NCBI GenBank assembly: GCA_964626665.1
Contig: CAZVGK010000021.1
Coordinates: forward strand, 1-57,515
Source: an uncultured Gemmatimonadota bacterium
Lineage (GTDB): Bacteria; SM23-81; DAOVCL01
Length of the DNA: 57,515 nt
Reading direction: 5' to 3'
Shown piece after piece: positions 22,476-35,945 of this stretch (position 1 is the first letter of the stretch; each line of letters opens with the position of its first letter). Made by a program: the position numbers and the translations under genes. The notes beneath the pieces were generated by a model that saw only the letters and a program-made list of their open reading frames with translations, had not been told where the DNA came from and searched no databases.

Positions 22476-23800
22476 ATCCCCGCTTCCCCCTGTAAAATGG
22501 GAGCTATCCTCCTTGCCTCGCGGAAAACCTTATCCTCCTCAATGGTAAGAACCCTTCCCCCCTGGTAGAGAACCTTTCCCCCTACAATGACCGTCTCCAC
22601 ATCAGAGGCCTGGGTTGCATAGGTCAATGTGGTATAGACATCATCGGAGGAGAGAAAATGGGTACGGTTGAGGTCGAGAACCACCAGATCAGCCCACTTC
22701 CCCACTTCAATGGAACCTATCTCCTGCTCCATCCCCAAGGCCTCGGCCCCCCCTAAGGTGGCCATGCGGAAAGCCTCCTGGGCATCTAAGGCCTGGGGGC
22801 CATTCTTCACCTTTTGCAGAAGGGCGGCCAATCGGAGTTCCCAAAAGCCATCCAGGCTATTGCTGCAAGCTGCACCATCGGCTCCCAGGGATACAGAGAT
22901 CCCCTTTTCCCGAAAACCGGAGACATCAGCGATGCCTGAACCAAGCTTGAGGTTGGAAGATGGACAATGGAGAACCCTGGTCTGGGTGCGGGCCATAATA
23001 TCCATTTCCCCCTCCCCCAACCAGATACAATGGGCCAGACAAAGCCTTTTTCCAGTAAGGCCCAGACTGTCCAGATACTCTATCTCCCCCATTCCCTTTT
23101 CCCGCCGGACGAACTCCACCTCCTCTTTGGTCTCGGCGGCATGGGAATGGATGAGGATGTCCCTTCTTCTGGACTCCTCACCTATCCTTTTTAAGAGGGT
23201 TTGAGAACAGGAGGGGGCGAATCGGGGGGCAAAGCAACCTGCCAACTTCCCATTCCCCTTCCCCTTCCCCTGCCAATTCTCCCAGAGCCTTAGGCTCTCC
23301 CCTAAGGACTCCTCGCTGGTTTCCTTTAAACCTAAAGGAAGCCCCTCCCCCCCATCCATCATCGCCTTGCCAATTATCGCCCTCATACCCGACTCCTGCG
23401 CTGCTCTGAAGACCATATCGGTATGCTTCACCGCTTCCATCGTCAGGATGGTCGTCGTGCCACCCCTGATCAGCTCGGATAAACCTAATAGGGCAGAGAC
23501 ATATACCGAATCGGGAAAATGGGCCGCCTCCAAAGGCCATATCCTCTTCTGCAACCAATCGGTGAGGGAGAGGCCATCAGCCATTCCCCGAAATATGGTC
23601 TGGCAGAGGTGAATGTGGGTCTGCACCAGTCCAGGAATGACAAACTTACCTTTGGCCTTTAAAATCTCCACCTGCGGAGGAGGTTCTATCTTACCCACCT
23701 CAGAAATCCTTCCACCCCTCACCAGAATATCTCCCTCAACTACCCCTTGCGGGCTCATGGTAACCAGGGTGGCACCTTTAATAAGCAAATCTGAATTCAT
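22472..23800 (-). CDS. Amidohydrolase, MtaD/5'-deoxyadenosine deaminase family
   Basis: PGLVQTHIHL, HSHAAET, HCPSSNLKLGSG, LGADG. Confidence 0.85.
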   Translation of the reverse strand: MNSDLLIKGATLVTMSPQGVVEGDILVRGGRISEVGKIEPPPQVEILKAKGKFVIPGLVQTHIHLCQTIFRGMADGLSLTDWLQKRIWPLEAAHFPDSVYVSALLGLSELIRGGTTTILTMEAVKHTDMVFRAAQESGMRAIIGKAMMDGGEGLPLGLKETSEESLGESLRLWENWQGKGKGNGKLAGCFAPRFAPSCSQTLLKRIGEESRRRDILIHSHAAETKEEVEFVRREKGMGEIEYLDSLGLTGKRLCLAHCIWLGEGEMDIMARTQTRVLHCPSSNLKLGSGIADVSGFREKGISVSLGADGAACSNSLDGFWELRLAALLQKVKNGPQALDAQEAFRMATLGGAEALGMEQEIGSIEVGKWADLVVLDLNRTHFLSSDDVYTTLTYATQASDVETVIVGGKVLYQGGRVLTIEEDKVFREARRIAPILQGEAGI

Positions 23801-23832
23801 AGATTTAAATCCTCTTAGCTATTTCCCCAATT

Positions 23833-23861
23833 AAAATAACAAATCTACCCCATTCTGTCAA
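23833..23861 (-). promoter_or_regulatory. Sigma70 promoter for the deaminase-leuCD-ffh operon (duplicated at 27329-27357)
   Basis: TTGACA-17 bp-TATTTT with TG extension. Confidence 0.6.
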
Positions 23862-23875
23862 TCCCATTCTCCCCC

Positions 23876-23909
23876 AAAAAAGAAAGCCAACCTCCATCTG
23901 GAGGTTGGC
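23876..23909 (-). terminator. Intrinsic terminator downstream of mini-RAYT 1 (duplicated at 27373-27406)
   Basis: GCCAACCTCCA-TC-TGGAGGTTGGC with a U-tract on the minus strand. Confidence 0.7.
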
Positions 23910-23913
23910 CTAG

Positions 23914-24160
23914 AAAATAGGGACACTTCCTATTTTTTAGCCAATCTTCCTGGGACGCCCTCGCGGCCTCACTGTCAGCTCGCTATCCAATCTCTGTTCC
24001 TGTCCCTTCATCAAAGAACACACGGGATCGATTGTTCCCCCTCTGGGTATTGTGATGGGGACACCTTACGGCAACAACCCTAACAATCCTTGGCATAACT
24101 GAAAATTATAAGAACCGACTGACGGGATGTCAATAGAAAAATAGGAAGTGTCCCTATTTT
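23914..24160 (-). mobile_element. Internally deleted RAYT element (mini-RAYT 1)
   Basis: Inverted 23-bp hairpin sites at 23914 and 24138 enclose fused 3' and 5' ends of the RAYT gene plus its promoter. Confidence 0.85.
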
Positions 24161-24409
24161 TCTATTTTTCTTGTTTTTTTGACAAAATTTTTCGTAGCAA
24201 CCGCAAAGCCACTAAGATTGCAGAGGAAATAAAAAGCAAAAGAGAGATGAAATAAAACGAATGGTTAAAAATCTTTAAACTTTGCGTCCTTTGCGACTTT
24301 GCGGTGAATTATTTGGTTGCGACTGTGCCGCGCTGTCACCCCTGAATGGAGCCTATCCCCTTCAAACTACCCCCGACGTTTCGGAATTTCTAAGGAATTC
24401 CGAAACGTC

Positions 24410-24471
24410 AAATTACGCTTAAACTCCGGAGTAAACTCAATTTGAAGCCCTTCCTGGAATTTATTCTGCAC
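24410..24471 (-). pseudogene. 5' stub of a RelE/HigB-like toxin
   Basis: GTG start overlapping the antitoxin stop: VQNKFQEGLQIEFTPEFKRNL, then cut by the repeat at 24335-24409. Confidence 0.55.
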
Positions 24472-24679
24472 CTACTCCCTCCCAGAGCTCTGCAACGGGT
24501 CTTGTTTTACCTTCTTTGGCTTCTCTCCATCCATGTTTAAAACTCTCTTTGGCAGTCTTCAACGTTACGCTCTCCTTAAACAAACGAACGATCTGTAAAA
24601 GGTTGGGAAAATATTCTTCCGGTAGATCCTTTACCTCTCCAATAAGCACCTTCTCATATTTGGTTCGTGAAGCAGCCAT
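24461..24679 (-). CDS. Putative type II antitoxin
   Basis: 72 aa, LPEEY..NLLQIVRLF...SF..GW.EA..G.T.PV.ELW; translationally coupled to the toxin stub. Confidence 0.6.
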   Translation of the reverse strand: MAASRTKYEKVLIGEVKDLPEEYFPNLLQIVRLFKESVTLKTAKESFKHGWREAKEGKTRPVAELWEGVGAE

Positions 24680-24833
24680 ATTTTTCTCTCCTTTCGCTAA
24701 AACATTTATCTAAACATCAGTTAACTCAAGGTATTACTAAACTCCCTTTCATTCTTCTATGAACATTGTTTGGAAAGGAAGGAGAATTCAGTGGCAACGA
24801 GGGATTAAAAACAGTCAGATACGGTTCAAACCG

Positions 24834-25225
24834 TTAAGAGCGTTCAAAAGAAGGGACTGCCAAGTATTTAGCAAAAGTCGAGGGTTTAGGAATAGGTAAA
24901 TTATCCTCAATTAACCCTTTTACATGCATCTCAATCGCCTTATGCATATTTTGTTCCGCCTCCTCTTGCGTGGCACCTGTTGCTATACAGCCAGAGAACT
25001 TAACTCGTTCCACTCACAAAGTTCTCCATAGGGTCTCTCGACCCTCTGGCGCTCCGCAATCCTCCGCTTGCTCGAATTGCTCCGCTGTCAAGATTGAAGG
25101 GGGCCTACCCCTTTCAAACTACCCCCGGGTCTCAGAACCTCTGGAGACTCCGAGACGCTCAAGTCAGGAGAATAAGCCGAATAGTCCTCATCCATCTTTT
25201 CAATAACAACCAGAAAACGGTGCAT
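24834..25225 (-). pseudogene. hicB: HicB antitoxin interrupted by a 162-bp element
   Basis: MHRFLVVIEKMDEDYSAYSPD | SGCIATGATQEEAEQNMHKAIEMHVKGL; closely similar to the hicB at 35731. Confidence 0.8.
24999..25160. mobile_element. TIR-less multi-hairpin element flanked by AA/AA
   Basis: Interrupts hicB; homologous copy at 46191-46355 and partial copy at 24335-24409. Confidence 0.75.
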
Positions 25226-25227
25226 AG

Positions 25228-25300
25228 TTACTTCACCTCCCCTTTCTTTAATTGGGCTCCCTTCAAAATGCTATTCAGGTCCCTGATGCTAAATTGGTAT
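25228..25300 (-). pseudogene. hicA: 3' remnant of HicA toxin
   Basis: NLASGT(frameshift)NSILKGAQLK matches the HicA C-terminal DL.PGTL.SILKQA motif; cut at the 25305 hairpin site. Confidence 0.6.
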
Positions 25301-25304
25301 TAAG

Positions 25305-25327
25305 AAAATAGGAAGTGTCCCTATTTT
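25305..25327. repeat. Solo 23-bp RAYT hairpin site
   Basis: AAAATAGGAAGTGTCCCTATTTT. Confidence 0.9.
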
Positions 25328-25567
25328 TTCTATATGAGACGCAGATGAACGCAGATAAGCAGGATTCCTAAACATTTCCCTCCCCCTTGATGGGGGAGGA
25401 CTAAGGAGAGGGTGAAGATTTTGTCTATCCCCCCCTCACTCTGCCCCTCTCCCTTCAAGGGAGAGGGAACTATATGCTACAACTTTAGTTGTGCCCTCGT
25501 AGGTTGCGATAGAGAGCAGACTAAAGTCTGTGGCAGCGGGAATTTTGGCCAGCAACATCAAACCTTG

Positions 25568-25782
25568 TTAAACGGTCTTGTAAGTATCTTCAGTGCGTTT
25601 TGCAACTTTGGTTACAATTACTATCTTTTCGCCATCATCAATTTCGTAAATGATGCGGTATCTTCCAATCCTTTTACGATAGACATTGTCAGTAAGCTTC
25701 TTGGCGCCATAAGGACGTGGAGTTTTTCCCAGGTTAAGTATCGCTTTTGTTATTCTACTCCCATCTTTTCTTGGGAAGCCAA
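25568..25782 (-). pseudogene. 3' portion of a RelE toxin, 5' end lost at the RAYT site
   Basis: GFPRKDGSRITKAILNLGKTPRPYGAKKLTDNVYRKRIGRYRIIYEIDDGEKIVIVTKVAKRTEDTYKTV*. Confidence 0.8.
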
Positions 25783-25816
25783 AATAAAATAGTAAAATAG
25801 GGACACTTCCTATTTT

Positions 25817-26482
25817 TTAGCCAATCTTCCTGGGACGCCCTCGCGGCCTGACCGTCAACTTCCTATCCAACGTCTGCTCCAGCTCCTTGACAAATCCCTC
25901 TTCTCCCAAGGGTCTCTCTGCCAAAGTTGCCTTCCTGATTGCTTCCAAATTTTCCCTCCCTGGTTCCCTCAGGTAATCCCTATACTTGCTCCGCTCAGAT
26001 TCCTGCAGCCAATCGGAACACTTGAGAATATCCTCTTCCCCCAATAGATGAAACCTGGCGCTCGACCACCTGTAGTTCTCAGCATTTTCCACTAATCCCA
26101 CCCGCAAAGGATTCCCTTCAATATACTTAGCCACAGCCCATAGATACCTCTCCTTATCCACTACACAAGAGTAAAAGCGATTCTGCCACAGCCTTCCACT
26201 CCTTCCATACTTCCTGTTTATGTGCTGCGTATAGACAAGATTTGTCCCCCCTATACCACGGGCTAAAGAATCTTCCCTCCGGGGAACAACTAATAGATGA
26301 ATGTGATTGTCCATCAAACAATAAGCCCATATCTCTATCCCATATTCCTCACTATAGTGCCCCAAGATCTTTAGATACACCCTCCGGTCCTCTTCATCGA
26401 AGAACACACGGGATCGATTGTTCCCCCTCTGGGTAATGTGATGGGGATATCCTACGGCTACCACCCTGGCAATCCTTGGCAT
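25817..26482 (-). CDS. REP-associated tyrosine transposase (Y1 HUH, RAYT-type)
   Basis: HHITQRGNNR, AYCLMDNHIHLL (HUH), LWQNRF, YIEGNP, YRWSS, C-terminal RPRGRP. Confidence 0.93.
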   Translation of the reverse strand: MPRIARVVAVGYPHHITQRGNNRSRVFFDEEDRRVYLKILGHYSEEYGIEIWAYCLMDNHIHLLVVPRREDSLARGIGGTNLVYTQHINRKYGRSGRLWQNRFYSCVVDKERYLWAVAKYIEGNPLRVGLVENAENYRWSSARFHLLGEEDILKCSDWLQESERSKYRDYLREPGRENLEAIRKATLAERPLGEEGFVKELEQTLDRKLTVRPRGRPRKIG

Positions 26483-26490
26483 AACTAAAT

Positions 26491-26519
26491 ATTATAAGAA
26501 CTCACTGACGGAATGTCAA
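26491..26519 (-). promoter_or_regulatory. Consensus sigma70 promoter of RAYT (also in the other three copies)
   Basis: TTGACA-17 bp-TATAAT, 8 nt before ATG, no Shine-Dalgarno. Confidence 0.85.
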
Positions 26520-26672
26520 GGGAAAATAGGAAGTGTCCCTATTTTTTCCCTTGACTTTGCTCATTATCAGAATTATTTTCAGCTTACATATGAGAGAAAC
26601 CACCTGGTGAAAAATTTAGGTACTTGACAAGGGTTTTGTACAATAAAACTCACAGGCAGAAAGGAGTAATTT

Positions 26673-26936
26673 ATGCCGATAATAAAACCCATCTCTGATT
26701 TGCGTAATCACACAGATGAAATTTCAGATCTCTGTCATCAAGAAGACGAACCTGTATTCATCACTAAAAATGGCCAAGGAGACCTGGTAGTAATGAGTTA
26801 TGCCCATTACGAAAGACTTCATTCCCTCCTTGAACTTTACAAAAAGTTAGATGAAGCAAAAGTCTCAACAGTAACAGGCCAAAAGGGCATTACCCATTCC
26901 GAAATGATGAAACTAATCAAAGAGCATCTGGAGTGA
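26673..26936 (+). CDS. Phd/YefM antitoxin
   Basis: MPIIKPISDLRN...EPVFITKNGQGDLVVMS; AGGAG RBS. Confidence 0.9.
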   Translation: MPIIKPISDLRNHTDEISDLCHQEDEPVFITKNGQGDLVVMSYAHYERLHSLLELYKKLDEAKVSTVTGQKGITHSEMMKLIKEHLE

Positions 26937-27241
26937 ACAAGAAAACATACGCTATTCAATATCTTCAAACAGCACAACGAGACTTACTCGAAATAATTGA
27001 TTACATCAAATTAGATAATCCTACTGCTGCAAAGGCCTTTGCTGAGAAAATAGATAAACACATTTCAAATTTATCTCGCTTCCCAAAAACGGTGAAAATA
27101 CCAAACAACGAGCGGCTTAAGAGATTGGGTTACAGAATCTTGCCCATAGACCACTATTTGGTATTTTATGTAATTACTGGCCAAATAGTTCAAATTCGTA
27201 GAGTTATTAATGGGGCCCGCCGATACGAATTTCTCCTCTAA
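26933..27241 (+). CDS. RelE/ParE family toxin
   Basis: AQRDLLEIIDYI..DNP.AA...L..FP...GYR....YLVFY...V.I.RV..G.R; 4-bp overlap with the antitoxin. Confidence 0.88.
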   Translation: MNKKTYAIQYLQTAQRDLLEIIDYIKLDNPTAAKAFAEKIDKHISNLSRFPKTVKIPNNERLKRLGYRILPIDHYLVFYVITGQIVQIRRVINGARRYEFLL

Positions 27242-27415
27242 ACTTGTAAAAGTATACTCTACAACCCGAATTACAACAATGCATGATTGTCACAAATTTT
27301 AAGAGCATGCCTTATGAAATCTGATATCAACATAACAAATCCCCCCCATTCTGTCAATCCCATTCTCCCCCCAAAAAAGAAAACCAACCTCCATCTGGAG
27401 GTTGGCCCCAATCAT

Positions 27416-27661
27416 AAAATAGGGACACTTCCTATTTTTTAGCCATCCTTCCTCGGACGTCCTCGCGGCCTCACTGTCAACTCGCTATCCAATCTCTGTT
27501 CCGGTCCCTTCATCAAAGAACACACGGGATCGATTGTTCCCCCTCTGGGTAATGTGATGGGGATATCCTACGGCTACCACCCTGGCAATCCTTGGCATAA
27601 CTAAATATTATAAGAACTCACTGACGGAATGTCAAGGGAAAATAGGAAGTGTCCCTATTTT
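27416..27661 (-). mobile_element. Internally deleted RAYT element (mini-RAYT 2)
   Basis: Same deletion junction as 23914-24160; hairpin sites at 27416 and 27639. Confidence 0.85.
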
Positions 27662-27901
27662 TTCCCATTTTTCTGCTCCAATGGCAGGATATACTTCCTC
27701 TTTAGTTAACCACGAGGCATACTGTAAAGCTTCCTTTATATCCTCAGGTTCAAGATCGGGATATTCTCGGATTATTCCTTCTATTGTCATTTCATTGGCC
27801 ACAAGGTTCACAATCAAAGAAACCGGGATTCTCATCCCTCTAATGCAAGCTTGACCTCCCATAACATTGGGGTTAAAAGTTATTCTCTTAAAGCCTTTCA
27901 T
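27632..27901 (-). CDS. DUF433 antitoxin-like protein, 3' end running into the hairpin site
   Basis: RITFNPNVMGGQACIRGMRIPV...YPDLEPEDIKEALQYA; no PIN-type partner gene downstream. Confidence 0.85.
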   Translation of the reverse strand: MKGFKRITFNPNVMGGQACIRGMRIPVSLIVNLVANEMTIEGIIREYPDLEPEDIKEALQYASWLTKEEVYPAIGAEKWEKIGTLPIFP

Positions 27902-28063
27902 AATTTCTCCCTCCTATTTTTTCCCCTCGTAAAATCTCCCCTCACTCCCTTCAAGGGAGAGGGAACTATATGCTACAACTTTAGTTGTGCCCTCGTAGGT
28001 TGCGATAGAGAGCAGACTAAAGTCTGTGGCAGCGGGAATTTTGGCCAGCAACATCAAGCCTTG

Positions 28064-28560
28064 TTAAATGGCCTTGTAAGTATCTTCAGCACGTTTTGCA
28101 ACTTTGGTTAGAATTATTATCTTTTCGCCATCATCAACTTCATCCCAAAATATGCTATAACCACAGATTCACCCCGTTAAATATACTTTCGTATTTCACG
28201 GGGTGAACACAGATTTTCACAGATTAAATAAGAACCTTTAAGAAGGGAAGGTTTCACCTTTTAAGTGAAAAAGGAGTTTTGAATTCAATTCCTGTAAGGA
28301 GCCTTATTTTGTATATCTTGTGATAATCTTGTGGAATCTCGTGGTTTCTTACTGCATAATCTGGGTTCATATATGATGCGGTATCTTCCAATCCTTATAC
28401 GATAGACATCGGCGGCAAGCTTCTTGGCGCCATAAGGACGTGGAGTTTTTCCCAGGTTAAGTATCGCTTTTGTTATTCTACTCCCATCTTTTCTTGGGAA
28501 GCCAAGAATTTGCTTCTCAACCCTTTTACTCGCTAGTTCGACTTTATAGATCAAAGGCAT
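28064..28560 (-). pseudogene. RelE toxin interrupted by a 222-bp MITE
   Basis: Removing 28144-28365 and one TTCAT restores an 89-aa ORF ending YRIIYEVDDGEKIIILTKVAKRAEDTYKAI*. Confidence 0.88.
28144..28365. mobile_element. MITE with 17-bp imperfect TIRs and a 5-bp target-site duplication
   Basis: CCCAAAATATGCTATAA versus CCCAGATTATGCAGTAA (13/17); TTCAT at 28139-28143 and 28366-28370. Confidence 0.88.
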
Positions 28561-28780
28561 CTCTGTTTTCTTCTAAGAATTCATCAAAAGGTCTTCCCTC
28601 CCCTCTTCGGTAGGCACTCATCTCTTCCCAATGGTCAACAAGATCCTCTAAATCCTCCAATCTTTCTAATAATCTTTCATAACGAGTTAAGGGAAGAATT
28701 ACAAGGGCCTGTTCCTTTGAATCTGCATAAATCTTTTTGAGCTGACCACTAACTTTGTTGACTGTAGTTTTAGTTACCAT
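28544..28780 (-). CDS. Antitoxin (Phd/RelB-like) paired with the interrupted relE
   Basis: 78 aa, VILPLTRYERLLERLEDLED, acidic C-terminus; overlaps the relE start. Confidence 0.7.
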   Translation of the reverse strand: MVTKTTVNKVSGQLKKIYADSKEQALVILPLTRYERLLERLEDLEDLVDHWEEMSAYRRGEGRPFDEFLEENRDAFDL

Positions 28781-28833
28781 TTTTCAATCCCCTTTTTTGA
28801 TCTTATCCACATTAACCCAAATAATAATTTAAT

Positions 28834-29585
28834 AAAATAGGGACACTTCCTATTTTTTAGCCATCCTTCCTGGGACGCCCTCGCGGCCTGACCATCAACT
28901 TCCTATCCAACGTCTGCTCCAGCTCCCTGACAAATCCCTCTTCCCCTAAGGGTCTCTCTGCCAAAGTTGCCTTCCTGATTGCTTCCAAATCTTCCCTCCC
29001 TGGTTCCCTCAGGTAATCCCTATACTTGCTCCGCTCAGATTCCTGCAGCCAATCGGAACACTTGAGAATATCCTCTTCCCCCAATAGATGAAACCTGGCG
29101 CTCGACCACCTGTAGTTCTCAGCATTTTCCACTAATCCCACCCGCAAAGGATTCCCTTCAATATACTTAGCCACAGCCCATAGATACCTCTCCTTATCCA
29201 CTACACAAGAGTAAAAGCGATTCTGCCACAGCCTTCCACTCCTTCCATACTTCCTGTTTATGTGCTGCGTATAGACAAGATTTGTCCCCCCTATACCACG
29301 GGCTAAAGAATCTTCCCTCCGGGGAACAACTAATAGATGAATGTGATTGTCCATCAAACAATAAGCCCATATCTCTATCCCATATTCCTCACTATAGTGC
29401 CCCAAGATCTTTAGATACACCCTCCGGTCCTCTTCATCGAAGAACACACGGGATCGATTGTTCCCCCTCTGGGTAATGTGATGGGGATATCCTACGGCTA
29501 CCACCCTGGCAATCCTTGGCATAACTAAATATTATAAGAACTCACTGACGGAATGTCAAGGGAAAATAGGAAGTGTCCCTATTTT
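28834..29585 (-). mobile_element. Full RAYT element 2 (752 bp)
   Basis: Near-identical to 25794-26545; hairpin sites at 28834 and 29563. Confidence 0.88.
28857..29522 (-). CDS. REP-associated tyrosine transposase (Y1 HUH), second copy
   Basis: 217/221 aa identical to copy 1. Confidence 0.93.
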   Translation of the reverse strand: MPRIARVVAVGYPHHITQRGNNRSRVFFDEEDRRVYLKILGHYSEEYGIEIWAYCLMDNHIHLLVVPRREDSLARGIGGTNLVYTQHINRKYGRSGRLWQNRFYSCVVDKERYLWAVAKYIEGNPLRVGLVENAENYRWSSARFHLLGEEDILKCSDWLQESERSKYRDYLREPGREDLEAIRKATLAERPLGEEGFVRELEQTLDRKLMVRPRGRPRKDG

Positions 29586-29605
29586 TTCTATTATTTTTTC
29601 CTAAT

Positions 29606-32600
29606 TCAACGCAGCATTAGCACCTTCCTCACTACGGAAAATCCACCTGCCCTCAATCTGTAAAAATAAACCCCGCTGGATATCTCCCTTCCAAGATTGT
29701 CTTTCCCACCCCAAAGGACCCGATAATAACCCGGCCCTTGCTCTTCATCCACCAGCGTCCTCACCAGCTCCCCCAGCACATTGTAGACCTTCAAACTAAC
29801 GTGGATCGTGCTCGTAGCCCGTGCTCGTGAACCCCCCACGGCGGACGATCGAGGGCTGACCCCTGATAGCTGATAGCTGATAGCTGTAGTTCCATTAAAC
29901 GGATTGGGGTAGTTCTGGGAGAGGCCAAATTCCTGGGGAAGATCGGAGGACAAACCCCGGTTATCTACCCCTTCCGGGGGCAAGATGGAAAAGAGGGAGT
30001 CGCTTTCATCCATCCCCACATTTCCTCCCCCATCATAAGCCACTACCTTGACAAGGCAGCTATCGGAAGTGAGACTATCGGTAATTTGCCAAATGAAGAG
30101 CGAATCATCGGACATGCTTTGAACAATCGTGTCTGGGTAGCTCCTTCCTCCATCATAGGAGAGGAAAATACTTAGGCTGTCAACCCCTATGTTATCATCT
30201 GCCCTGAACCTGACGGTATCCTCCTCCCCCACCCTCCACTTCTCACCTCCATTGGGAACTATAACCTCAACCTGTGGGGGAGTCCTATCCACCAAGCGGA
30301 AAAACCCCTGAGTCTCCCCCACCCCACTGTTACCCAGGAAGTCGTAGGCCACTATCTTCAATCGACAACTATCCGAAACAACATTGGGAACTTGCCATTG
30401 GTATGAGCTGTCACTCCCCTCAACCACGGCTATCGAGTCCCAACTCGCTTCTTCCCCAATTTTATAGAATATGTGAAGTGTCAGTATGTTGTTCTCATCT
30501 GTGGCGCTCCAGAGTATCTGGGTTTGGGCTCCACAACTCAGGCTGTCGCCTGCTGCAGGGGAGAGAATCGATACCTGCGGGCCCTTTCTGTCCACCAAGG
30601 TTGATCCCTCAGCGGCATCGGTGAGTGGTTCCACATTGCCGGCACTATCCTGAGCGATGGTCTGAAACCAATAGTAGCCATCTCCGCTATCGGGAGCAAA
30701 GATAAAGGTGCTTTCTACTCCAACCTCCCCGTAAAGTGTCCAGTCTCTCCCTTTTATTTTGTAGAATAGCTCTATCCGGTAAATGCCACTTGAGGGGGTA
30801 GAATCTGAGACTTCATAATGAACCGCAAAAAAGGAAGCATTAGAGGAATCGGGAACCTCGGTTACCCAGGATGTAGGCTTTACCCGATCCAGGAATATGC
30901 TATCACTTGCTACAGGGCTCAGGTTACCCGCATCATCCTTGACCTGGGCAAAAACCCACCTCCACCCATCTCCCAAAGAGTCGGAGAGAACAAATTGTAG
31001 GGAATCTCGCAGGGAAATCCACCCAGTAGAATTCATTGTAAAGGAGGAATCCTCGGCCAACCTCACCCAATCGGGGGAGCCAGCATAACTAAGGGCTGCA
31101 ACTATCGTATCCTTATTTGTGTATAGACCTACACCAGAAGACTGGTCTTTTAAACTTAGAAGGCAAAGCGGGACATCAGAGTCCACAAACACTGAATCCT
31201 CTGCTACAGAATCCCTCTTTTCCCAATTTCCAGCCGAATCCTGGGCAATAATCTCAAAAAGATAAAGCGTATCGCCGGTAGCATTGAAGGAAATCCTCTC
31301 GCCCGGAGAAAAGCTATCGTAAAGCTGCCAATTCCCATCCCCCTTCTTATAATAAAGCTCCACCCAAGCTACACCGCTTGCCGGAGGAGGATCGGAATAG
31401 GTATAGGGAATCTGGAAAGTAAGCTCATTGATAAAGTCAGGTAAACCTGAAGCCCTGGCCTGAGGGGTAACCTTATCTAAAAAAATGCCCTGACTCAAAA
31501 TAGAGCTTGTATTTCCTGCAGGGTCCCTTAGCTGGGCATAAACATTCCGCCAACCGTTATCACCCGGGGAGAGAATATAGGTAAGGTCTTCACCTAAATC
31601 AATCCATCCAGTCGAATCCACAGAGAAGAGGGAGTCCTCAGCCAATCTCACCTCACTGGGTGAACCGGAATAAGAAAGAAGCAAAGATAGTGTATCGCCA
31701 TTGGTAAAGAGATTCGAACCAGAACTAACATCTTTTAGGACTAAGCTTTCCAGAGCAGGAGCTGTAGCATCCACGGTTACCGAATCCTCAGCACAGAAAG
31801 TCTGCTCTTCGATATTCCCTGCCGAATCTTCAGCCACGATTTCAAAGAGATAAATTCCTTCTTCATCTGAATGGAAAGAGAAACTACTATCAGGACTCTC
31901 ACTTCCGTAACTGACCCAATTATCACCACCTACCTTATAGAAAAGCTCTAACCGAGCCACACCGCTACCTGGCAAAGAATCGGAATAGGTGTACGGAATC
32001 TGGAAGGAAGGTTCGTTGACATAATCCGGTAATCCTGAAACCTCAGAATGGGGAGAGGCCGTATCCACAAAAATACTGTCGCTTTTCACCTGACTTATTA
32101 TCCCCAGAAAATCTTTCAACTGGGCATAGACTTTTCTCCAGCCGTCTCCTGGAGTTAATGTATAGAAAACATCAGCAGCCAAATCTTGCCAACCGGTGGA
32201 GTTGAGGGAGAAAAGGGAATCCTGTGCCAGTCTCACCTCAATTGGAGAACCTAAATAGACCAGGCTAACTCTTAGCCCTCGCTCATTGGAAAAACGCTCA
32301 GAGTTCGAGTTTGTATCCCTTAAGGAAACTCCATCCATCCGCAAAACCGTATATGGAGGGGATTCCTCCGAGGAAGGTCCAATTATGTCCATAGTATCCA
32401 CCGCCGCCACCTTTACTCTATAGGTATATCCGGGAATCCCCTCTATGGAGGAGCAAGTGTCTGTTGTCGTTCCTGCCTCTATATAGTCTGAATCATTTAC
32501 GGATTTGTAAATAATATAATGATCAACAGGCGAATCCTGCTCAGGAGGGGACCAGCAAAAGCCGAGAGTTTGAGTTTGGGGATCCGCCAAGGCCGACTTT

Positions 32601-32662
32601 ACGCCAAAGGAGAAACCAAAGAGGAGGACAATAAAAAAACCAATGGCTTTATAGAGTTTCAT
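29606..32662 (-). CDS. Large secreted acidic protein: FN3, tandem Ig-like repeats, FlgD-Ig/QNYPNPFN C-terminal domain
   Basis: Signal peptide, three ~200-aa repeats (STGW..L..GDGWR.VYAQL.D.AGN), QNYPNPFN...SSGVYFYRL. Confidence 0.8.
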   Translation of the reverse strand: MKLYKAIGFFIVLLFGFSFGVKSALADPQTQTLGFCWSPPEQDSPVDHYIIYKSVNDSDYIEAGTTTDTCSSIEGIPGYTYRVKVAAVDTMDIIGPSSEESPPYTVLRMDGVSLRDTNSNSERFSNERGLRVSLVYLGSPIEVRLAQDSLFSLNSTGWQDLAADVFYTLTPGDGWRKVYAQLKDFLGIISQVKSDSIFVDTASPHSEVSGLPDYVNEPSFQIPYTYSDSLPGSGVARLELFYKVGGDNWVSYGSESPDSSFSFHSDEEGIYLFEIVAEDSAGNIEEQTFCAEDSVTVDATAPALESLVLKDVSSGSNLFTNGDTLSLLLSYSGSPSEVRLAEDSLFSVDSTGWIDLGEDLTYILSPGDNGWRNVYAQLRDPAGNTSSILSQGIFLDKVTPQARASGLPDFINELTFQIPYTYSDPPPASGVAWVELYYKKGDGNWQLYDSFSPGERISFNATGDTLYLFEIIAQDSAGNWEKRDSVAEDSVFVDSDVPLCLLSLKDQSSGVGLYTNKDTIVAALSYAGSPDWVRLAEDSSFTMNSTGWISLRDSLQFVLSDSLGDGWRWVFAQVKDDAGNLSPVASDSIFLDRVKPTSWVTEVPDSSNASFFAVHYEVSDSTPSSGIYRIELFYKIKGRDWTLYGEVGVESTFIFAPDSGDGYYWFQTIAQDSAGNVEPLTDAAEGSTLVDRKGPQVSILSPAAGDSLSCGAQTQILWSATDENNILTLHIFYKIGEEASWDSIAVVEGSDSSYQWQVPNVVSDSCRLKIVAYDFLGNSGVGETQGFFRLVDRTPPQVEVIVPNGGEKWRVGEEDTVRFRADDNIGVDSLSIFLSYDGGRSYPDTIVQSMSDDSLFIWQITDSLTSDSCLVKVVAYDGGGNVGMDESDSLFSILPPEGVDNRGLSSDLPQEFGLSQNYPNPFNGTTAISYQLSGVSPRSSAVGGSRARATSTIHVSLKVYNVLGELVRTLVDEEQGPGYYRVLWGGKDNLGREISSGVYFYRLRAGGFSVVRKVLMLR

Positions 32663-32729
32663 TTGATTTACCTCCAAAGTCCCACAAAATAGACGTTTAT
32701 GAAATCCGAATTGACACTTGCTTAGATTT

Positions 32730-32771
32730 AAAAAGGGACAAGACCAAGCCTATGAAAGGTCTTATCCCTTT
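32730..32771 (-). terminator. Probable intrinsic terminator
   Basis: AAAGGGATAAGACC...GGTCTTGTCCCTTTTT on the minus strand. Confidence 0.5.
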
Positions 32772-32830
32772 ATACGCCAAAGGAGAACAACTATATTTTA
32801 AACTTCTTTCCTCTACCAAATTCTCTCTTC

Positions 32831-33514
32831 TCATTTCAAAAATATCATTCTCCTCGTTCTAATGAACGAGCCACATCGGAGTTGATAATAATATACCCCA
32901 CCGGAAACCCCTCTCCCGAGGCTGTTCCTCCCATCCCAAATAACCCGATAGTAACCAGGAACCTGCTCCTCATCCACCAGAATTCTTACCTCTTGCCCCA
33001 AGATGTTGTAGATTTTTAAGCTGACCGCTGACCGCTGATCGCTGACCGCTGGTAACTGGTAGCGGATGGTAGTGGAAGGATTGAACGGATTGGGAAAATT
33101 CTGGTCAAGGGAAAGAGTCTTGGGGATTTTCTCATCCTGTGCCTCATCCACACCAGAACGGAGGATAGTATCGGGGGAAGCCTCAGACAACGCACCTTCA
33201 ATACCAAATGAGTTTACAGCAGAAACTTTAACTCTGTAAGTATGACCCATCGATCCCATAAAAAAATATGTAGTATCTGAAGTCGTTCCTATTGAGTCAT
33301 AATCCGAGGTATCAACAGAACGATATATCTTGTAATAAGAAACAGTGGAATCTAACTCCGGCGGTGACCAACCAAAGGTCAGCGTATCCACTTGTTGGGC
33401 ATAGGTAGAGTTAACACCAAAAAACAAGGGAAAGCAAATTGAAAGAACAGCAATTAGCAGAGAAAAAAGTAGAATGCAAGAGTTCTGCCTTTTGGTTTCT
33501 TTCATAATAACCAT
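32831..33514 (-). CDS. Secreted protein: FN3 plus FlgD-Ig/QNFPNPFN C-terminal domain
   Basis: Signal peptide; WSPP...Y.IYRS...TYRVKVSAV, homologous to the N-terminus of the 29606 protein; QNFPNPFN. Confidence 0.8.
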   Translation of the reverse strand: MVIMKETKRQNSCILLFSLLIAVLSICFPLFFGVNSTYAQQVDTLTFGWSPPELDSTVSYYKIYRSVDTSDYDSIGTTSDTTYFFMGSMGHTYRVKVSAVNSFGIEGALSEASPDTILRSGVDEAQDEKIPKTLSLDQNFPNPFNPSTTIRYQLPAVSDQRSAVSLKIYNILGQEVRILVDEEQVPGYYRVIWDGRNSLGRGVSGGVYYYQLRCGSFIRTRRMIFLK

Positions 33515-33557
33515 CCTCCTATGGGCTCTGATTCTTATTCAAGTTAAGGAAGTTTTC

Positions 33558-35462
33558 TTACCACCAGCGAGGTTGACCTGGCTGCCCAGGTCTCGTTATG
33601 AGAGAATCAGGATCCGAGACAGCTAAATTACCAGAGGCATCTCTGCTTTTCACTCTGTAGTAATATTTAGTTGAACTCCTCAACGAATAGAGGGTATCAC
33701 AGTGCGTAGTATCTAACACTGCATTTAAAGGAGTTTCCTTTATAGAATCTGGAAACATCCAATATATCACTTGAGAAGTTGAGTACTCATCTGTTTCCCA
33801 TTCTATGGTTGCACTTGAATCGGTTGTATCAGAACAAACTACATTTGAAATTACTGGAGGTACAGAATCTGGGCCAGTATACTCATAGACCCCCAAGTCC
33901 CAAGCCGAACCTGTAGGTCTGATATAGCCATCTTTGTCCCTCTCAAATTCACTGCCCAATGTATTTGCCGAATCTCTGCAAGGGGAATTCCCTTGTAGAT
34001 GAACATTAGTAGAATTGGCAAACTTCGGGTCTGCGTTAATGGGGTGCTGATCATCACCGTCTATGTAAGCCCCAAGACCATAATAACAATTTCTGTCACT
34101 TTTAAAATTACCAATGGTACCTTCAACATAGCCTGACGCATCATTATTCATCAGGATGATATTATTCTCAAAACGAGTGGTGTCGCTATTATTATAGACA
34201 TTCAAGGCATAAGCACGGCAACCAGATATTGTGTTATTATAAAACCAAGCTCGTCCATCAGCTTGATATAGTGCTTCAGACGAAGCACTTCTACCCCCAT
34301 CAAAAATAATATTGTTATAGACCTTTGCCAGAGCGGTTTGGTCGGTTCCATCCGAGGAAAGATCATAGACGCCAATACAGCGGCAACCGTCCCAATTTGT
34401 GGCGTGAATTTCATTATCGTGCACTGACGATAAATAGTTATATTCGCCTTCATCACATCGGAATCCCTCATAATTGATCATAATAAGAGGACCCCTATTA
34501 AAGTTATTGTCGAAAACATAATTCCACGCTATCTCTATCGTATCTGGGCAACCCTTTGCATATATGGCATGATCCATTTTGCTACCTGTGCGCCCACCAG
34601 TGACGACATTTCCCAAAACACGGGCATCATCGCAGCCTATTGCAATGATGCCACTCTGAGCTTCTACAGTCCTATTGAGCCCATCACAATAGTTCCCCAC
34701 TACACGCCATCCATCTCCAGGTTTATTATTAGTAATACACGGGCTATACGCCTTCAAATAAAACTTTGATATTGTAATCCAAGCACTTGTGTTGTCATCA
34801 CTATATCTTTTGAAATTCACCCTGGGGGGGTCAGGACCTGGGGCACTAAAACAGGCCCTCTCTCCAGGATAACCCACAAAAGCCACGGGTCGGCTTCTTG
34901 TCCCTGTTATCTCTGTTGCTTTCAAACAAAAATTAGCGGTCCAGCCAGTATAACCGTATTGCCCAGAGTATGTCCCTTTTCTGAAATAGCATACATCTCC
35001 AGTATCACCAGTAATATAAAAACTATGAGGAGAACTCCAGGGGTCGCCGTAGGTTCCACTTCCTTCTGCTGTCGCTGCCGAGTCTACAAAGAAAATGTTC
35101 CCATCTCTCACTGTAAAAGGCACTCCATTGCTGGTATCACTGCCTACTATAATCTTAATGTCCCCCGTTGCAGCATTGCTCCCTAATTGAAAGCAGACCA
35201 GGGAATCATACCACTGAGGGTAGTTATCTGCATCTCCTCCACCGATAATAACTTTGGATGTGCCTTGTGAGTCCCCAAATCGCTTGCCCCAGATAGTCAC
35301 AAAAGCCCCTTTGTTATCCTTGCCACCAATCTTGGGGCCAGAAGTGAGATCGGAGAAGAAGATGGTGGGGGCAGCCCTACAAGCACTGCATAAAATTGAA
35401 CTTGCGTTTAAAACAAAACCTAATATCACAAAACCGGCCGTCAACAACATTCGCCTTTTCAT
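33558..35462 (-). CDS. Secreted beta-helix (pectin-lyase-like) protein with IPT/TIG, choice-of-anchor-Q-like and FN3 segments
   Basis: VTIWGKRFG, GTYGDPW, YNN/FYNNT repeats, ADPKF...SPCRD...WDLGVYEY, FN3 YYYRVKSRD. Confidence 0.7.
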   Translation of the reverse strand: MKRRMLLTAGFVILGFVLNASSILCSACRAAPTIFFSDLTSGPKIGGKDNKGAFVTIWGKRFGDSQGTSKVIIGGGDADNYPQWYDSLVCFQLGSNAATGDIKIIVGSDTSNGVPFTVRDGNIFFVDSAATAEGSGTYGDPWSSPHSFYITGDTGDVCYFRKGTYSGQYGYTGWTANFCLKATEITGTRSRPVAFVGYPGERACFSAPGPDPPRVNFKRYSDDNTSAWITISKFYLKAYSPCITNNKPGDGWRVVGNYCDGLNRTVEAQSGIIAIGCDDARVLGNVVTGGRTGSKMDHAIYAKGCPDTIEIAWNYVFDNNFNRGPLIMINYEGFRCDEGEYNYLSSVHDNEIHATNWDGCRCIGVYDLSSDGTDQTALAKVYNNIIFDGGRSASSEALYQADGRAWFYNNTISGCRAYALNVYNNSDTTRFENNIILMNNDASGYVEGTIGNFKSDRNCYYGLGAYIDGDDQHPINADPKFANSTNVHLQGNSPCRDSANTLGSEFERDKDGYIRPTGSAWDLGVYEYTGPDSVPPVISNVVCSDTTDSSATIEWETDEYSTSQVIYWMFPDSIKETPLNAVLDTTHCDTLYSLRSSTKYYYRVKSRDASGNLAVSDPDSLITRPGQPGQPRWW

Positions 35463-35507
35463 TTCTTCATCCCCCCGTTTTTATTTAAAAGGCATTCTGA
35501 TTGTTAA

Positions 35508-35523
35508 AGCAACTTATGTGCCA
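35508..35523 (-). promoter_or_regulatory. Sigma54 (-24/-12) promoter
   Basis: TGGCAC-ATAAG-TTGCT about 45 bp upstream of the 35462 start. Confidence 0.7.
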
Positions 35524-35730: not shown

Positions 35731-35945
35731 TCACTGAACAGCCACGTATTCAGCAAAGGTTAAAGACTTAGGAATAGGCAAGTTATCCTCCATTAACCCT
35801 TTCACATGCATTTCAACCGCCTTATGCATATTTTGCTCAGCCTCCTCCTGAGTTACACCCGTTGCTATACAGCCAGGCAAGTCAGGAGAATAAGCCGAAT
35901 AGTTCCCATCCGCCTTTTCAATGACAACCAGAAAACGAAACGATT
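35731..35945 (-). pseudogene. hicB: Orphan HicB; native start replaced by repeat DNA
   Basis: FRFLVVIEKADGNYSAYSPDLPGCIATG...; upstream is an ACGGAAT/CACAGAT repeat, no hicA. Confidence 0.7.

Follow-up and report, generated by a model that had tools for sequence, protein, structure and literature searches.

Transposase units of probable TIRtron type, duplicated long ago in a toxin-antitoxin- and MITE-rich island of an uncultured Gemmatimonadota bacterium

Genes for the transposases associated with repetitive extragenic palindromes (REPs), the REP-associated tyrosine transposases or RAYTs, are described as always lying between two inverted REPs, often right after the stop codon (Nunvar 2010, PMC2817692). 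RAYT-like genes with terminal inverted repeats (TIRs) that are not of the GTAG type were named TIRtrons or TIRYTs in the same paper that treats the GTAG/CGTC repeats; their TIRs have the motif GGGGWSAS in common, some are self-complementary, and they occur singly, as dimers and in clusters, in families of moderate abundance (Di Nocera 2013, PMC3733652). Most TIRYTs have been tied to subclass 2.1, which has a C-terminal helix-turn-helix (HTH) domain (Quentin 2018), and duplicated RAYTs make up 2-7.7% of the family (Bertels 2017, PMC5581495). Here we analyse a 57,515-nucleotide stretch of DNA (the window; contig CAZVGK010000021.1 of GenBank assembly GCA_964626665.1) from an uncultured Gemmatimonadota bacterium, in which nine copies of a 23-nucleotide (nt) hairpin site accompany two transposase genes and several toxin-antitoxin (TA) genes. 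The original prediction, made from the letters alone, saw in this array a distinct class of HUH element, acting as an integron-like platform for the capture and shuffling of TA modules. We consider it probable that the array is a RAYT-type Y1 system of the TIRtron/TIRYT kind, which lies in an island, duplicated long ago, that is rich in TA genes and miniature inverted-repeat transposable elements (MITEs), and that duplication and not capture accounts for its form.

The 23-mer AAAATAGGGACACTTCCTATTTT has nine exact copies between positions 23914 and 29585 of the window, as had been predicted, at 23914(+), 24138(-), 25305(-), 25794(+), 26523(-), 27416(+), 27639(-), 28834(+) and 29563(-). One further copy, at 1138(-), has a single mismatch, and 100 shuffles of the window gave no match to the 23-mer. 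Read across the array, the orientations run + - - + - + - + -, an alternation which identifies the sites as the inverted ends of four elements and a solo copy at 25305. Two of the elements are complete 752-bp units on the minus strand, each made up of a hairpin, an open reading frame (ORF) of 221 amino acids (aa), a promoter and a second hairpin: R1 (25794-26545; ORF 25817-26482, promoter 26519-26491) and R2 (28834-29585; ORF 28857-29522, promoter 29559-29531). In both, one hairpin directly adjoins the TAA stop codon, and 40 nt separate the ATG from the other. Within these 40 nt is a perfect TTGACA-17 nt-TATAAT promoter whose end is 8 nt away from the ATG, so the transposase mRNA is probably leaderless. 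The end of R2 lies 20 nt from the stop codon of a gene with a type IX secretion system (T9SS) tail.

The other two elements, M1 (23914-24160, 247 bp) and M2 (27416-27661, 246 bp), also on the minus strand, are internally deleted units with inverted 23-nt hairpin ends. What they retain of the unit is about 95 nt at its 3′ end and about 160 nt at its 5′ end, the latter with the perfect sigma-70 consensus promoter (24133-24105 in M1, 27635-27607 in M2). Since M1 and M2, which are 91% identical, have the same junction and several derived substitutions in common, they go back to a single deletion event. Their promoters would transcribe outward through the left hairpin, toward the terminator-like hairpins of the leaders described below. 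The solo site (25305-25327, minus strand) lies 2 nt from a MITE of family C, and a contig (25026-25404) bridges it in all four of the public salt-marsh metagenome runs that we examined, as contigs only. Two 752-bp units, two derivatives of about 247 bp with a common junction and one solo site were all foreseen in the original prediction.

Folded as single-stranded DNA together with their flanks, the sites give free energies of -8.6 to -13.9 kcal/mol (z -3.6 to -6.5). The site reads AAAATAGGGAC, and in 63 genomic sites neither foot carries GTAG or GTGG; the description of the ends as identical inverted hairpins without a GTAG/CGTC tag, unlike those of IS200/IS605 elements, was correct. At the right end of R1 (26513-26555) eight more complementary bases, GTCAAGGG inside and CCCTTGAC outside, lengthen the hairpin into a 41-nt palindrome; the other element ends are without such an extension.

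The protein is a RAYT-family Y1 HUH transposase, an identity that was also predicted and that several lines of evidence bear out. It matches Pfam Y1_Tnp (E 5e-16, 59.3 bits against a cut-off of 23), and in NCBIfam it scores 78.7 bits on the REP_Tyr_transpos model (cut-off 80) and 21.1 bits on the IS200 model (cut-off 55). The HUH histidines H60 and H62 and the residues of the motif Y120-I-x-x-N-P (I121, N124, P125) are invariant in 27 aligned sequences, and the HUH and Y-x-x-x-N motifs align with the corresponding motifs of E. coli TnpA_REP (4ER8). That structure is the first match in a profile search of the PDB (E 1e-4), followed by an IS200-type transposase (E 0.045); a single-protein phmmer search of the PDB gave weak IS200 matches only (E 0.017). 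Foldseek, run with an AlphaFold model (predicted local distance difference test, pLDDT, 88; predicted template modelling score, pTM, 0.87), likewise ranks 4er8_A first (E 2.7e-8, template modelling score 0.69 on target), then IS608, ISDra2 and IS200. Besides Y1_Tnp, no Pfam domain was found in the transposase at E up to 0.01, and the C-terminal HTH was not detected; the model has four short helices after residue 140. At the C-terminus (residues 213-219, 25823-25843) a G-R-P within RPRGRPRK is invariant in 27 relatives; it is AT-hook-like and could contact the A/T-rich stem of the site. The family is large: 3,078 proteins among 3,530 candidates match at E up to 1e-20, many of them about 60% identical and about 222 aa long, and one member is named REP-associated tyrosine transposase by NCBI. 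An exact look-up of both 221-aa proteins in the protein collection gave no match; the called genes probably start elsewhere (P0001 has 215 aa).

How does this locus compare with the described systems? As in TIRtrons and TIRYTs, the Y1 gene has on each side, at a short and constant distance, a terminal inverted repeat that is not related to the GTAG REPs. The core of the repeat, AGGGACAC, agrees with GGGGWSAS at seven of its eight positions, and relatives carry GGGGACAG or GGGGACAC. The repeat is self-complementary, as in some TIRtrons, and forms a moderately abundant family of singles, dimers and clusters; TIRtron hosts include Acidobacteria and Planctomycetes, which are also found among the hosts of the homologues here. 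We located 603 homologous loci among species-representative genomes, with hosts that include Desulfobacterota, Planctomycetota, Nitrospirota, Omnitrophota and Acidobacteriota, and sampled 80 of these loci, 71 of them with enough flanking DNA to test. Inverted ends, which had been suggested as something to look for in homologous RAYTs, are present: 57 of the 71 testable loci have an exact inverted repeat of at least 12 nt around the gene. As a rule one arm is found 35-50 nt before the start codon and the other 0-50 nt beyond the stop; a GGGACA(C/G) core is almost always present, and 65 of 75 loci have a GG[GA]AC[AG] core in the 130 nt that precede the gene. Two genomes from another family of the same phylum (G003, G005) each have a single 56%-identical gene, set among housekeeping genes and bordered by almost the same site as here: AAAATAGGGACACATCCTATTTT stands on one side, and on the other a closely similar variant forms an inverted doublet.

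Because inverted flanks with a GGGACA core, spread across many phyla, match the 2013 description of TIRtrons and TIRYTs, the element is a member of that described class and not of a new HUH class; Di Nocera 2013 pre-empts the claim of a distinct class. The locus differs from the TIRtrons in having two paralogous copies of the gene together with internally deleted derivatives of the whole unit, and in its host, an uncultured salt-marsh lineage; from TIRYT subclass 2.1 it differs in that the Pfam scan detected no HTH domain. With REPtrons, the RAYTs represented by TnpA_REP (E. coli YafM, 4ER8), the system has in common the nearest solved structure, the HUH and Y-x-x-x-N motifs, inverted palindromic flanks of which one comes right after the stop, and dispersed repeats that are often inverted doublets. 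The repeat here, however, lacks the GT[AG]G head and has 63 copies rather than hundreds, and the protein, at 221 aa, has about 80 extra C-terminal residues that end in the invariant GRP. RAYTs are typically single-copy, with one full-length gene per repeat type in a genome; here there are two full copies, both in this locus. The IS200/IS605 elements IS608 and ISDra2 have the same Y1 HUH fold and likely the same chemistry on single-stranded hairpins, but their ends are dissimilar subterminal hairpins on one strand and not identical inverted 23-mers; the low score on the IS200 model (21 bits against 55) and the lack of dispersed full copies here are further differences.

The 23-mer is not confined to this locus, which corrects an earlier note. 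When up to three mismatches are allowed, the 3.17-Mb genome (G000) contains 63 sites, 24 of them exact, and a reversed control pattern found no match there at up to two mismatches. Outside the locus there are seven +/- doublets of 160-280 bp, in at least two families, which have only the site and about 15 nt in common with the transposase unit; they are non-autonomous elements of a REPIN- or MITE-like type. REPINs (REP doublets forming hairpins; Bertels & Rainey 2011; Bertels 2017) are similarly non-autonomous inverted doublets, dispersed from a transposase at one locus. They differ in that the doublets here, of about 160-280 bp, have unrelated spacers and fall into at least two families, and in that M1 and M2 still hold both gene ends and the promoter. 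A search for full transposase genes elsewhere in the genome found none, only a relic and more distant Y1 genes. The relic, at G000:C2:91583-92023, is a decayed family member, 51% identical over residues 1-150 and with one in-frame TGA; the 23-mer is not nearby.

These features suggest how the system could work. Each unit consists of a hairpin, a consensus promoter, the 221-aa gene and a second hairpin, with the self-complementary 23-nt site as the terminal inverted repeat. By analogy with TnpA_REP and IS608 TnpA, the enzyme would recognise the site as a hairpin in single-stranded DNA, use Y120 (in YIEGNP) to cleave at the foot of this hairpin, and rejoin the ends. Doublets bounded by sites would be mobilised and spread while the gene itself stays in place, again by analogy. 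One block, made up of a leader, a deleted unit, TA genes and a full unit, would have been duplicated, and the two copies would then have diverged through MITE insertions and through deletions ending at hairpins. The TA genes are old residents of the island, and the hairpin elements would have come into a region that is tolerant and poor in genes, a kind of region that they may favour. We infer the single-strand binding, the position of cleavage, the mobilisation of doublets and the order of events.

The two homologous blocks extend from 23830 to 26548 and from 27326 to 29588, which confirms the two diverged units that had been proposed and fixes their edges. Each opens with a leader of 84-90 nt that carries a terminator-like hairpin: L1 (23830-23913, minus strand), with its hairpin at 23884-23911 in the minus-strand reading, is 89% identical to L2 (27326-27415, minus strand), with its hairpin at 27380-27409. 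The blocks as a whole are 89-95% identical, and the non-coding parts that neighbour the transposase units are 5-11% diverged. L119, a 58,945-bp metagenome contig from the same population, is colinear with positions 22860-35522 of the window (12,663 bases), with 26 substitutions, no insertions or deletions and the same nine sites; L120, a 2.2-kb contig from another sample, covers 27373-29584. R1 and R2 differ at 7 positions in the window and at 30 of 752 in L119, so the near-identity of the two units in the window does not hold in an independent assembly. Most of the L119 substitutions (21 of 26) fall within R1 (26014-26417), and at all 21 the R1 of the window has the R2 base; the R1 of the window is either an assembler-smoothed or a gene-conversion allele. 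Between the R1 and R2 genes of L119, synonymous divergence (dS) is 0.136 and non-synonymous divergence (dN) 0.0235, a dN/dS of 0.17, and both ORFs are intact. Since the dS of 0.136 agrees with the 5-11% divergence of the adjacent parts of the blocks, the blocks are an old segmental duplication, in which selection has since kept both transposase genes.

Had R1 and R2 instead arrived as independent, recent insertions of an active autonomous insertion sequence, the exact 23-nt ends, the perfect consensus promoter, the two intact ORFs and the mere 7 differences between the window copies would be natural. We nevertheless think this improbable. Both copies lie in one locus and none elsewhere in the genome; both lie downstream of homologous MITE C/relE sequence that is 95% identical between the blocks; the 30 differences and the dS found in L119 are similar to the divergence of the surrounding blocks; and five of the L119 R1/R2 variants are present in contigs of all four runs.

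An assembly artefact, in which the duplication would be a mis-threaded repeat, is scarcely credible. It would fit the run contigs, which break at every hairpin and MITE, the unit interior, which is present in each run as one sequence type at 1.1-1.6x the depth of the flanks rather than 2x, and the R2 bases at 21 positions of the window R1. Yet each unique junction is present at single-copy depth, as are both versions of the leader, of relE and of the flank in all four runs; L119 assembles the two units as distinct sequences, 96% identical; the blocks have diverged as described above; and five R1-specific variants occur in contigs of every run. In three of the four runs a contig connects the right R1 hairpin with M2 by way of phd-parE and L2; in the fourth it stops at 27340. 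The 95% likeness threshold set for run contigs probably left out contigs of the R1 type. A single transposase copy, as the depth of the unit interior might imply, was considered and rejected, since the L119 copies differ by 4%. No well-supported alternative joint was found in the contigs of the four runs: the joints that do occur, among them 24334 to 29563 and 28365 to 28834, have a short side of 21-36 nt, link multi-copy repeats and were rejected as rearrangements of the locus, and one contig joint matches the arrangement at G000:C27:43340-43496.

Between the sites lie 3.65 kb of cargo. In block 1, M1 is followed by a copy of MITE family A (24169-24336), which has 41 other genomic copies and is unrelated to the hairpin element, and by the right-hand part of a MITE family B copy (24331-24415), recognised by blastn against the genome. 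An orphan 72-aa ORF (24461-24679, minus strand) has a weak match to a RelN-type antitoxin (NCBIfam NF050107, E 4e-8, 33.7 bits against a cut-off of 70) and no match in a Pfam scan. Next comes a hicB-like antitoxin gene (24834-25225, minus strand; Pfam HicB_lk_antitox, E 2e-9 for the 3′ piece) that is split by a MITE B (24995-25159); both pieces match an uninterrupted paralogue at 35738-35937, and what had been taken for hicAB is this one split gene. A full-length MITE C (25330-25568, 53 other genomic copies) precedes the 3′ fragment of a relE/parE-family toxin gene (25586-25782, minus strand; PF05016 positions 30-88), which ends 11 nt from the R1 hairpin and is 95% identical to 28366-28505. 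Between the blocks stands a phd-parE pair on the plus strand (phd 26673-26936, Pfam PhdYeFM E 8e-12; parE 26933-27241, ParE_toxin E 1e-16). Block 2 holds a DUF433 antitoxin-like gene (27632-27901, minus strand; Pfam DUF433 E 2e-24) that has lost its stop, so that its frame enters the M2 hairpin, and whose partner gene is gone; a truncated MITE C (27938-28060); a relE/parE-family toxin gene (28061-28560, minus strand; ParE_toxin E 1e-4 for the ORF 28285-28560), interrupted by a MITE D (28142-28365, 43 other genomic copies); and, in the antitoxin position upstream of relE, a 78-aa ORF (28544-28780, minus strand) without a family match in Pfam or NCBIfam.

The protein families of the cargo are thus HicB_lk, PhdYeFM, ParE_toxin twice (once weakly), DUF433 and a weak RelN-type match, with two small ORFs unmatched. 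The claim that all recognisable cargo is type II TA stands for every coding part with a family match, but MITEs take up about 1.0 kb of these 3.65 kb, or some 27% of the cargo. By blastn of the locus against the genome, the four dispersed and mutually unrelated MITE families have 37-53 further copies each. Rfam recognised no family in the whole window at gathering score, and the MITEs accordingly do not correspond to any curated RNA. Short dispersed repeats are unusually numerous in this genome. A physical coupling of MITE C to the hairpin site was considered, since 6 of 63 sites lie within 150 bp of a copy, but junction and orientation are not fixed and we regard it as co-accumulation. To the right of the array, the T9SS sorting-domain 3′ end (29638-29940) of a 1,023-aa Ig-repeat gene matches, at the DNA level, dozens of genes in the genome and in its congeners at 67-91% identity.

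The orthologous locus of a congener, G001, bears on the age of the TA genes. It is bordered by the same amidohydrolase gene and by a gene whose T9SS tail is the same, and between these two lie, in order, a leader, an intact DUF5615-DUF433 pair, phd with the 5′ part of parE, an MqsA-like gene and the MITE B/hicB junction. The single leader adjoins the amidohydrolase gene and is 87-89% identical to both leaders of the window, and the junction of MITE B with the hicB 5′ end is identical in the two. M2 replaces the DUF5615 toxin gene: it occupies the position of 554 bp in G001 that comprise this gene and the last DUF433 codons. A search of the G001 assembly (90% complete) found no hairpin sites. 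Because G001 carries these modules at the orthologous locus with no sites, at least three TA modules and one MITE insertion of the window predate the hairpin elements. In another congener, G002, the orthologous region has different synteny (radical SAM, USP, ligA) and is thus unusable for the direction of the change in gene order. The phd gene and 5′ part of parE (26658-27040 compared with L029 of G001) are 96% identical and the neighbouring segments 78-89%, which suggests a recent exchange or conversion of the phd-parE module.

We also asked whether the sites lie near TA genes elsewhere. Four TA families (ParE, Phd, PIN and DUF433) were mapped in the genome, with 44 matches. Of 39 site clusters outside the locus, 5 have such a gene no more than 1 kb away, against 1.0 expected, and 0.3% of 5,000 random trials reach five; for MITE clusters the counts are 2 of 37 (family A), 1 of 37 (B), 1 of 33 (D) and 5 of 47 (C). 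The association of sites with TA genes is real but small, about five-fold, with random positions as a crude control. Among the homologous loci, 11 of 80 have a clear TA-family gene within 1.5 kb (a raw count; the second batch of the scan covered 83 ORFs of up to 160 aa, out of 176). Several breakpoints abut hairpins in the window: M2 stands in the place of DUF5615, relE is cut short beside R1, and on its right the duplication ends 3 nt beyond a hairpin, which suggests from the sequence that the sites may also favour deletions and duplications. In G002, sites occur in same-orientation arrays of five (L117, G002:C2:4000-11500) and three (L118, G002:C21:35000-41000), at intervals of 0.3-1.5 kb and surrounded by small accessory genes (DUF2442, DUF5647, HicA, a truncated Fic_N, a YhcG nuclease and BrxL); the Fic_N ORF stops 5 nt before a site, and the sites are embedded in longer local repeats.

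These observations allow the integron-like platform to be judged. In that reading the transposase would capture TA modules between its sites and reshuffle them, and it draws on the TA nature of all family-matched coding cargo, the difference in gene order from G001 with several breakpoints at hairpins, the five site clusters near ParE, Phd, PIN or DUF433 genes, the G002 arrays among accessory, HicA, Fic and BrxL genes, and the 96% identity of phd-parE between species whose flanking genes are 78-89% identical. We judge it quite improbable. The same TA genes stand at the same locus in site-free G001; the site orientations alternate as element ends do, and there is no cassette with one site per gene; more than a quarter of the cargo is other MITEs; and 69 of the 80 homologous loci have no TA-family gene within 1.5 kb. 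A comparison of cargo order between strains, which had been suggested as a check, found it identical in the window, L119, L120 and the contigs of the four runs. Chromosomal integrons are similar in that small TA genes and genes of other kinds without assigned function are interspersed with imperfect palindromes, but a scan of 12 ORFs of the locus revealed no integrase or other recombinase, the sites here pair as element ends rather than following each gene in the same orientation, and the cargo exists without sites in G001. The G001 locus, the site orientations and the fixed gene order in the available data therefore contradict a capture platform, and the evidence does not support a new gene-capture system. 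Of the idea that the array accumulates and reshuffles TA modules there remain the roughly five-fold TA enrichment, the difference in order from G001 and the breakpoints at hairpins; an alternative order appears in none of the three assemblies or four runs.

Several results weigh against the reading that we prefer, a TIRtron-type system in a duplicated island. The protein missed the cut-off of the NCBIfam REP_Tyr_transpos model, by 1.3 bits. The gene order is leader-DUF-phd-hicB in G001 and leader-hicB-phd-leader-DUF in the window, and no single duplication with deletions that would turn the former into the latter could be derived; a simple tandem duplication leaves the position of phd-parE between the blocks unexplained. 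The contigs of the four runs contain no excision or circle joints. G002 has 25 sites, 18 of them exact, and a search at the protein and DNA levels found no cognate transposase gene there. A perfect hairpin of at least 6 bp is present at the upstream repeat in only 24 of 75 homologous loci, and hairpin recognition may for this reason not be general for the family. Lastly, passive accumulation in junk DNA is not the whole story, because the sites are enriched near TA genes and three of the four other MITE families are not.

The last point leads to another reading, in which the sites are hot spots for deletion and duplication, whether made by the enzyme or by replication stalled at the hairpin, and insert preferentially in TA and defence islands, remodelling them without capture. 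We regard this as a possible but less likely account. It would explain why breakpoints in the window lie at hairpins, why the Fic_N ORF of G002 ends where it does, and why the sites and MITE C, and not MITEs A, B and D, lie near TA genes. The flanks of the sites also offer a candidate signal. The heptamer AAAATAG, a partial extra copy of the 5′ arm, stands immediately outside 13 of the 63 sites (examples are 24161-24170, 29586-29597 and G000:C7:97625-97648), and its mirror image on the other side outside none; ATAG stands at the outer 5′ flank of 20 of the 63 sites against 2.5 expected. This asymmetry may reflect a preferred, sequence-directed target motif, repeated cutting at the hairpin foot, or slippage. 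At G000 C7:97649 the AAAATAG flank makes three tandem 9-nt repeats. Against the hot-spot account, the numbers are small (five clusters and only four TA families), an intergenic element is controlled for only crudely by random positions, a later deletion next to any insertion would give the same picture, and nothing varies in the available population data.

A more specific version, that the sites insert preferentially in TA and defence islands by way of an AAAATAG-like target and then act as break points for deletion and duplication, strikes us as doubtful. If it were true, a domesticated Y1 transposase would be a specific remodelling agent of TA and defence islands, and the same-orientation site arrays of G002 would be a cassette-like extreme of such remodelling. 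The TA association and the breakpoints at hairpins deserve a proper comparative test.

In conclusion, the array is best regarded, with the likelihood stated at the outset, as a TIRtron-type RAYT system in an old, duplicated island. Of specialist interest are a two-copy TIRYT under purifying selection, the derivatives that keep the promoter, the association with TA genes and the heptamer at the flanks. The family to which the transposase belongs is very large and little studied, and the locus provides a well-preserved example of a TIRtron-type RAYT outside the Proteobacteria, with full units, promoter-keeping deletions, doublets and solo sites together. It is therefore useful for asking how REPIN-like repeats arise from a transposase unit.

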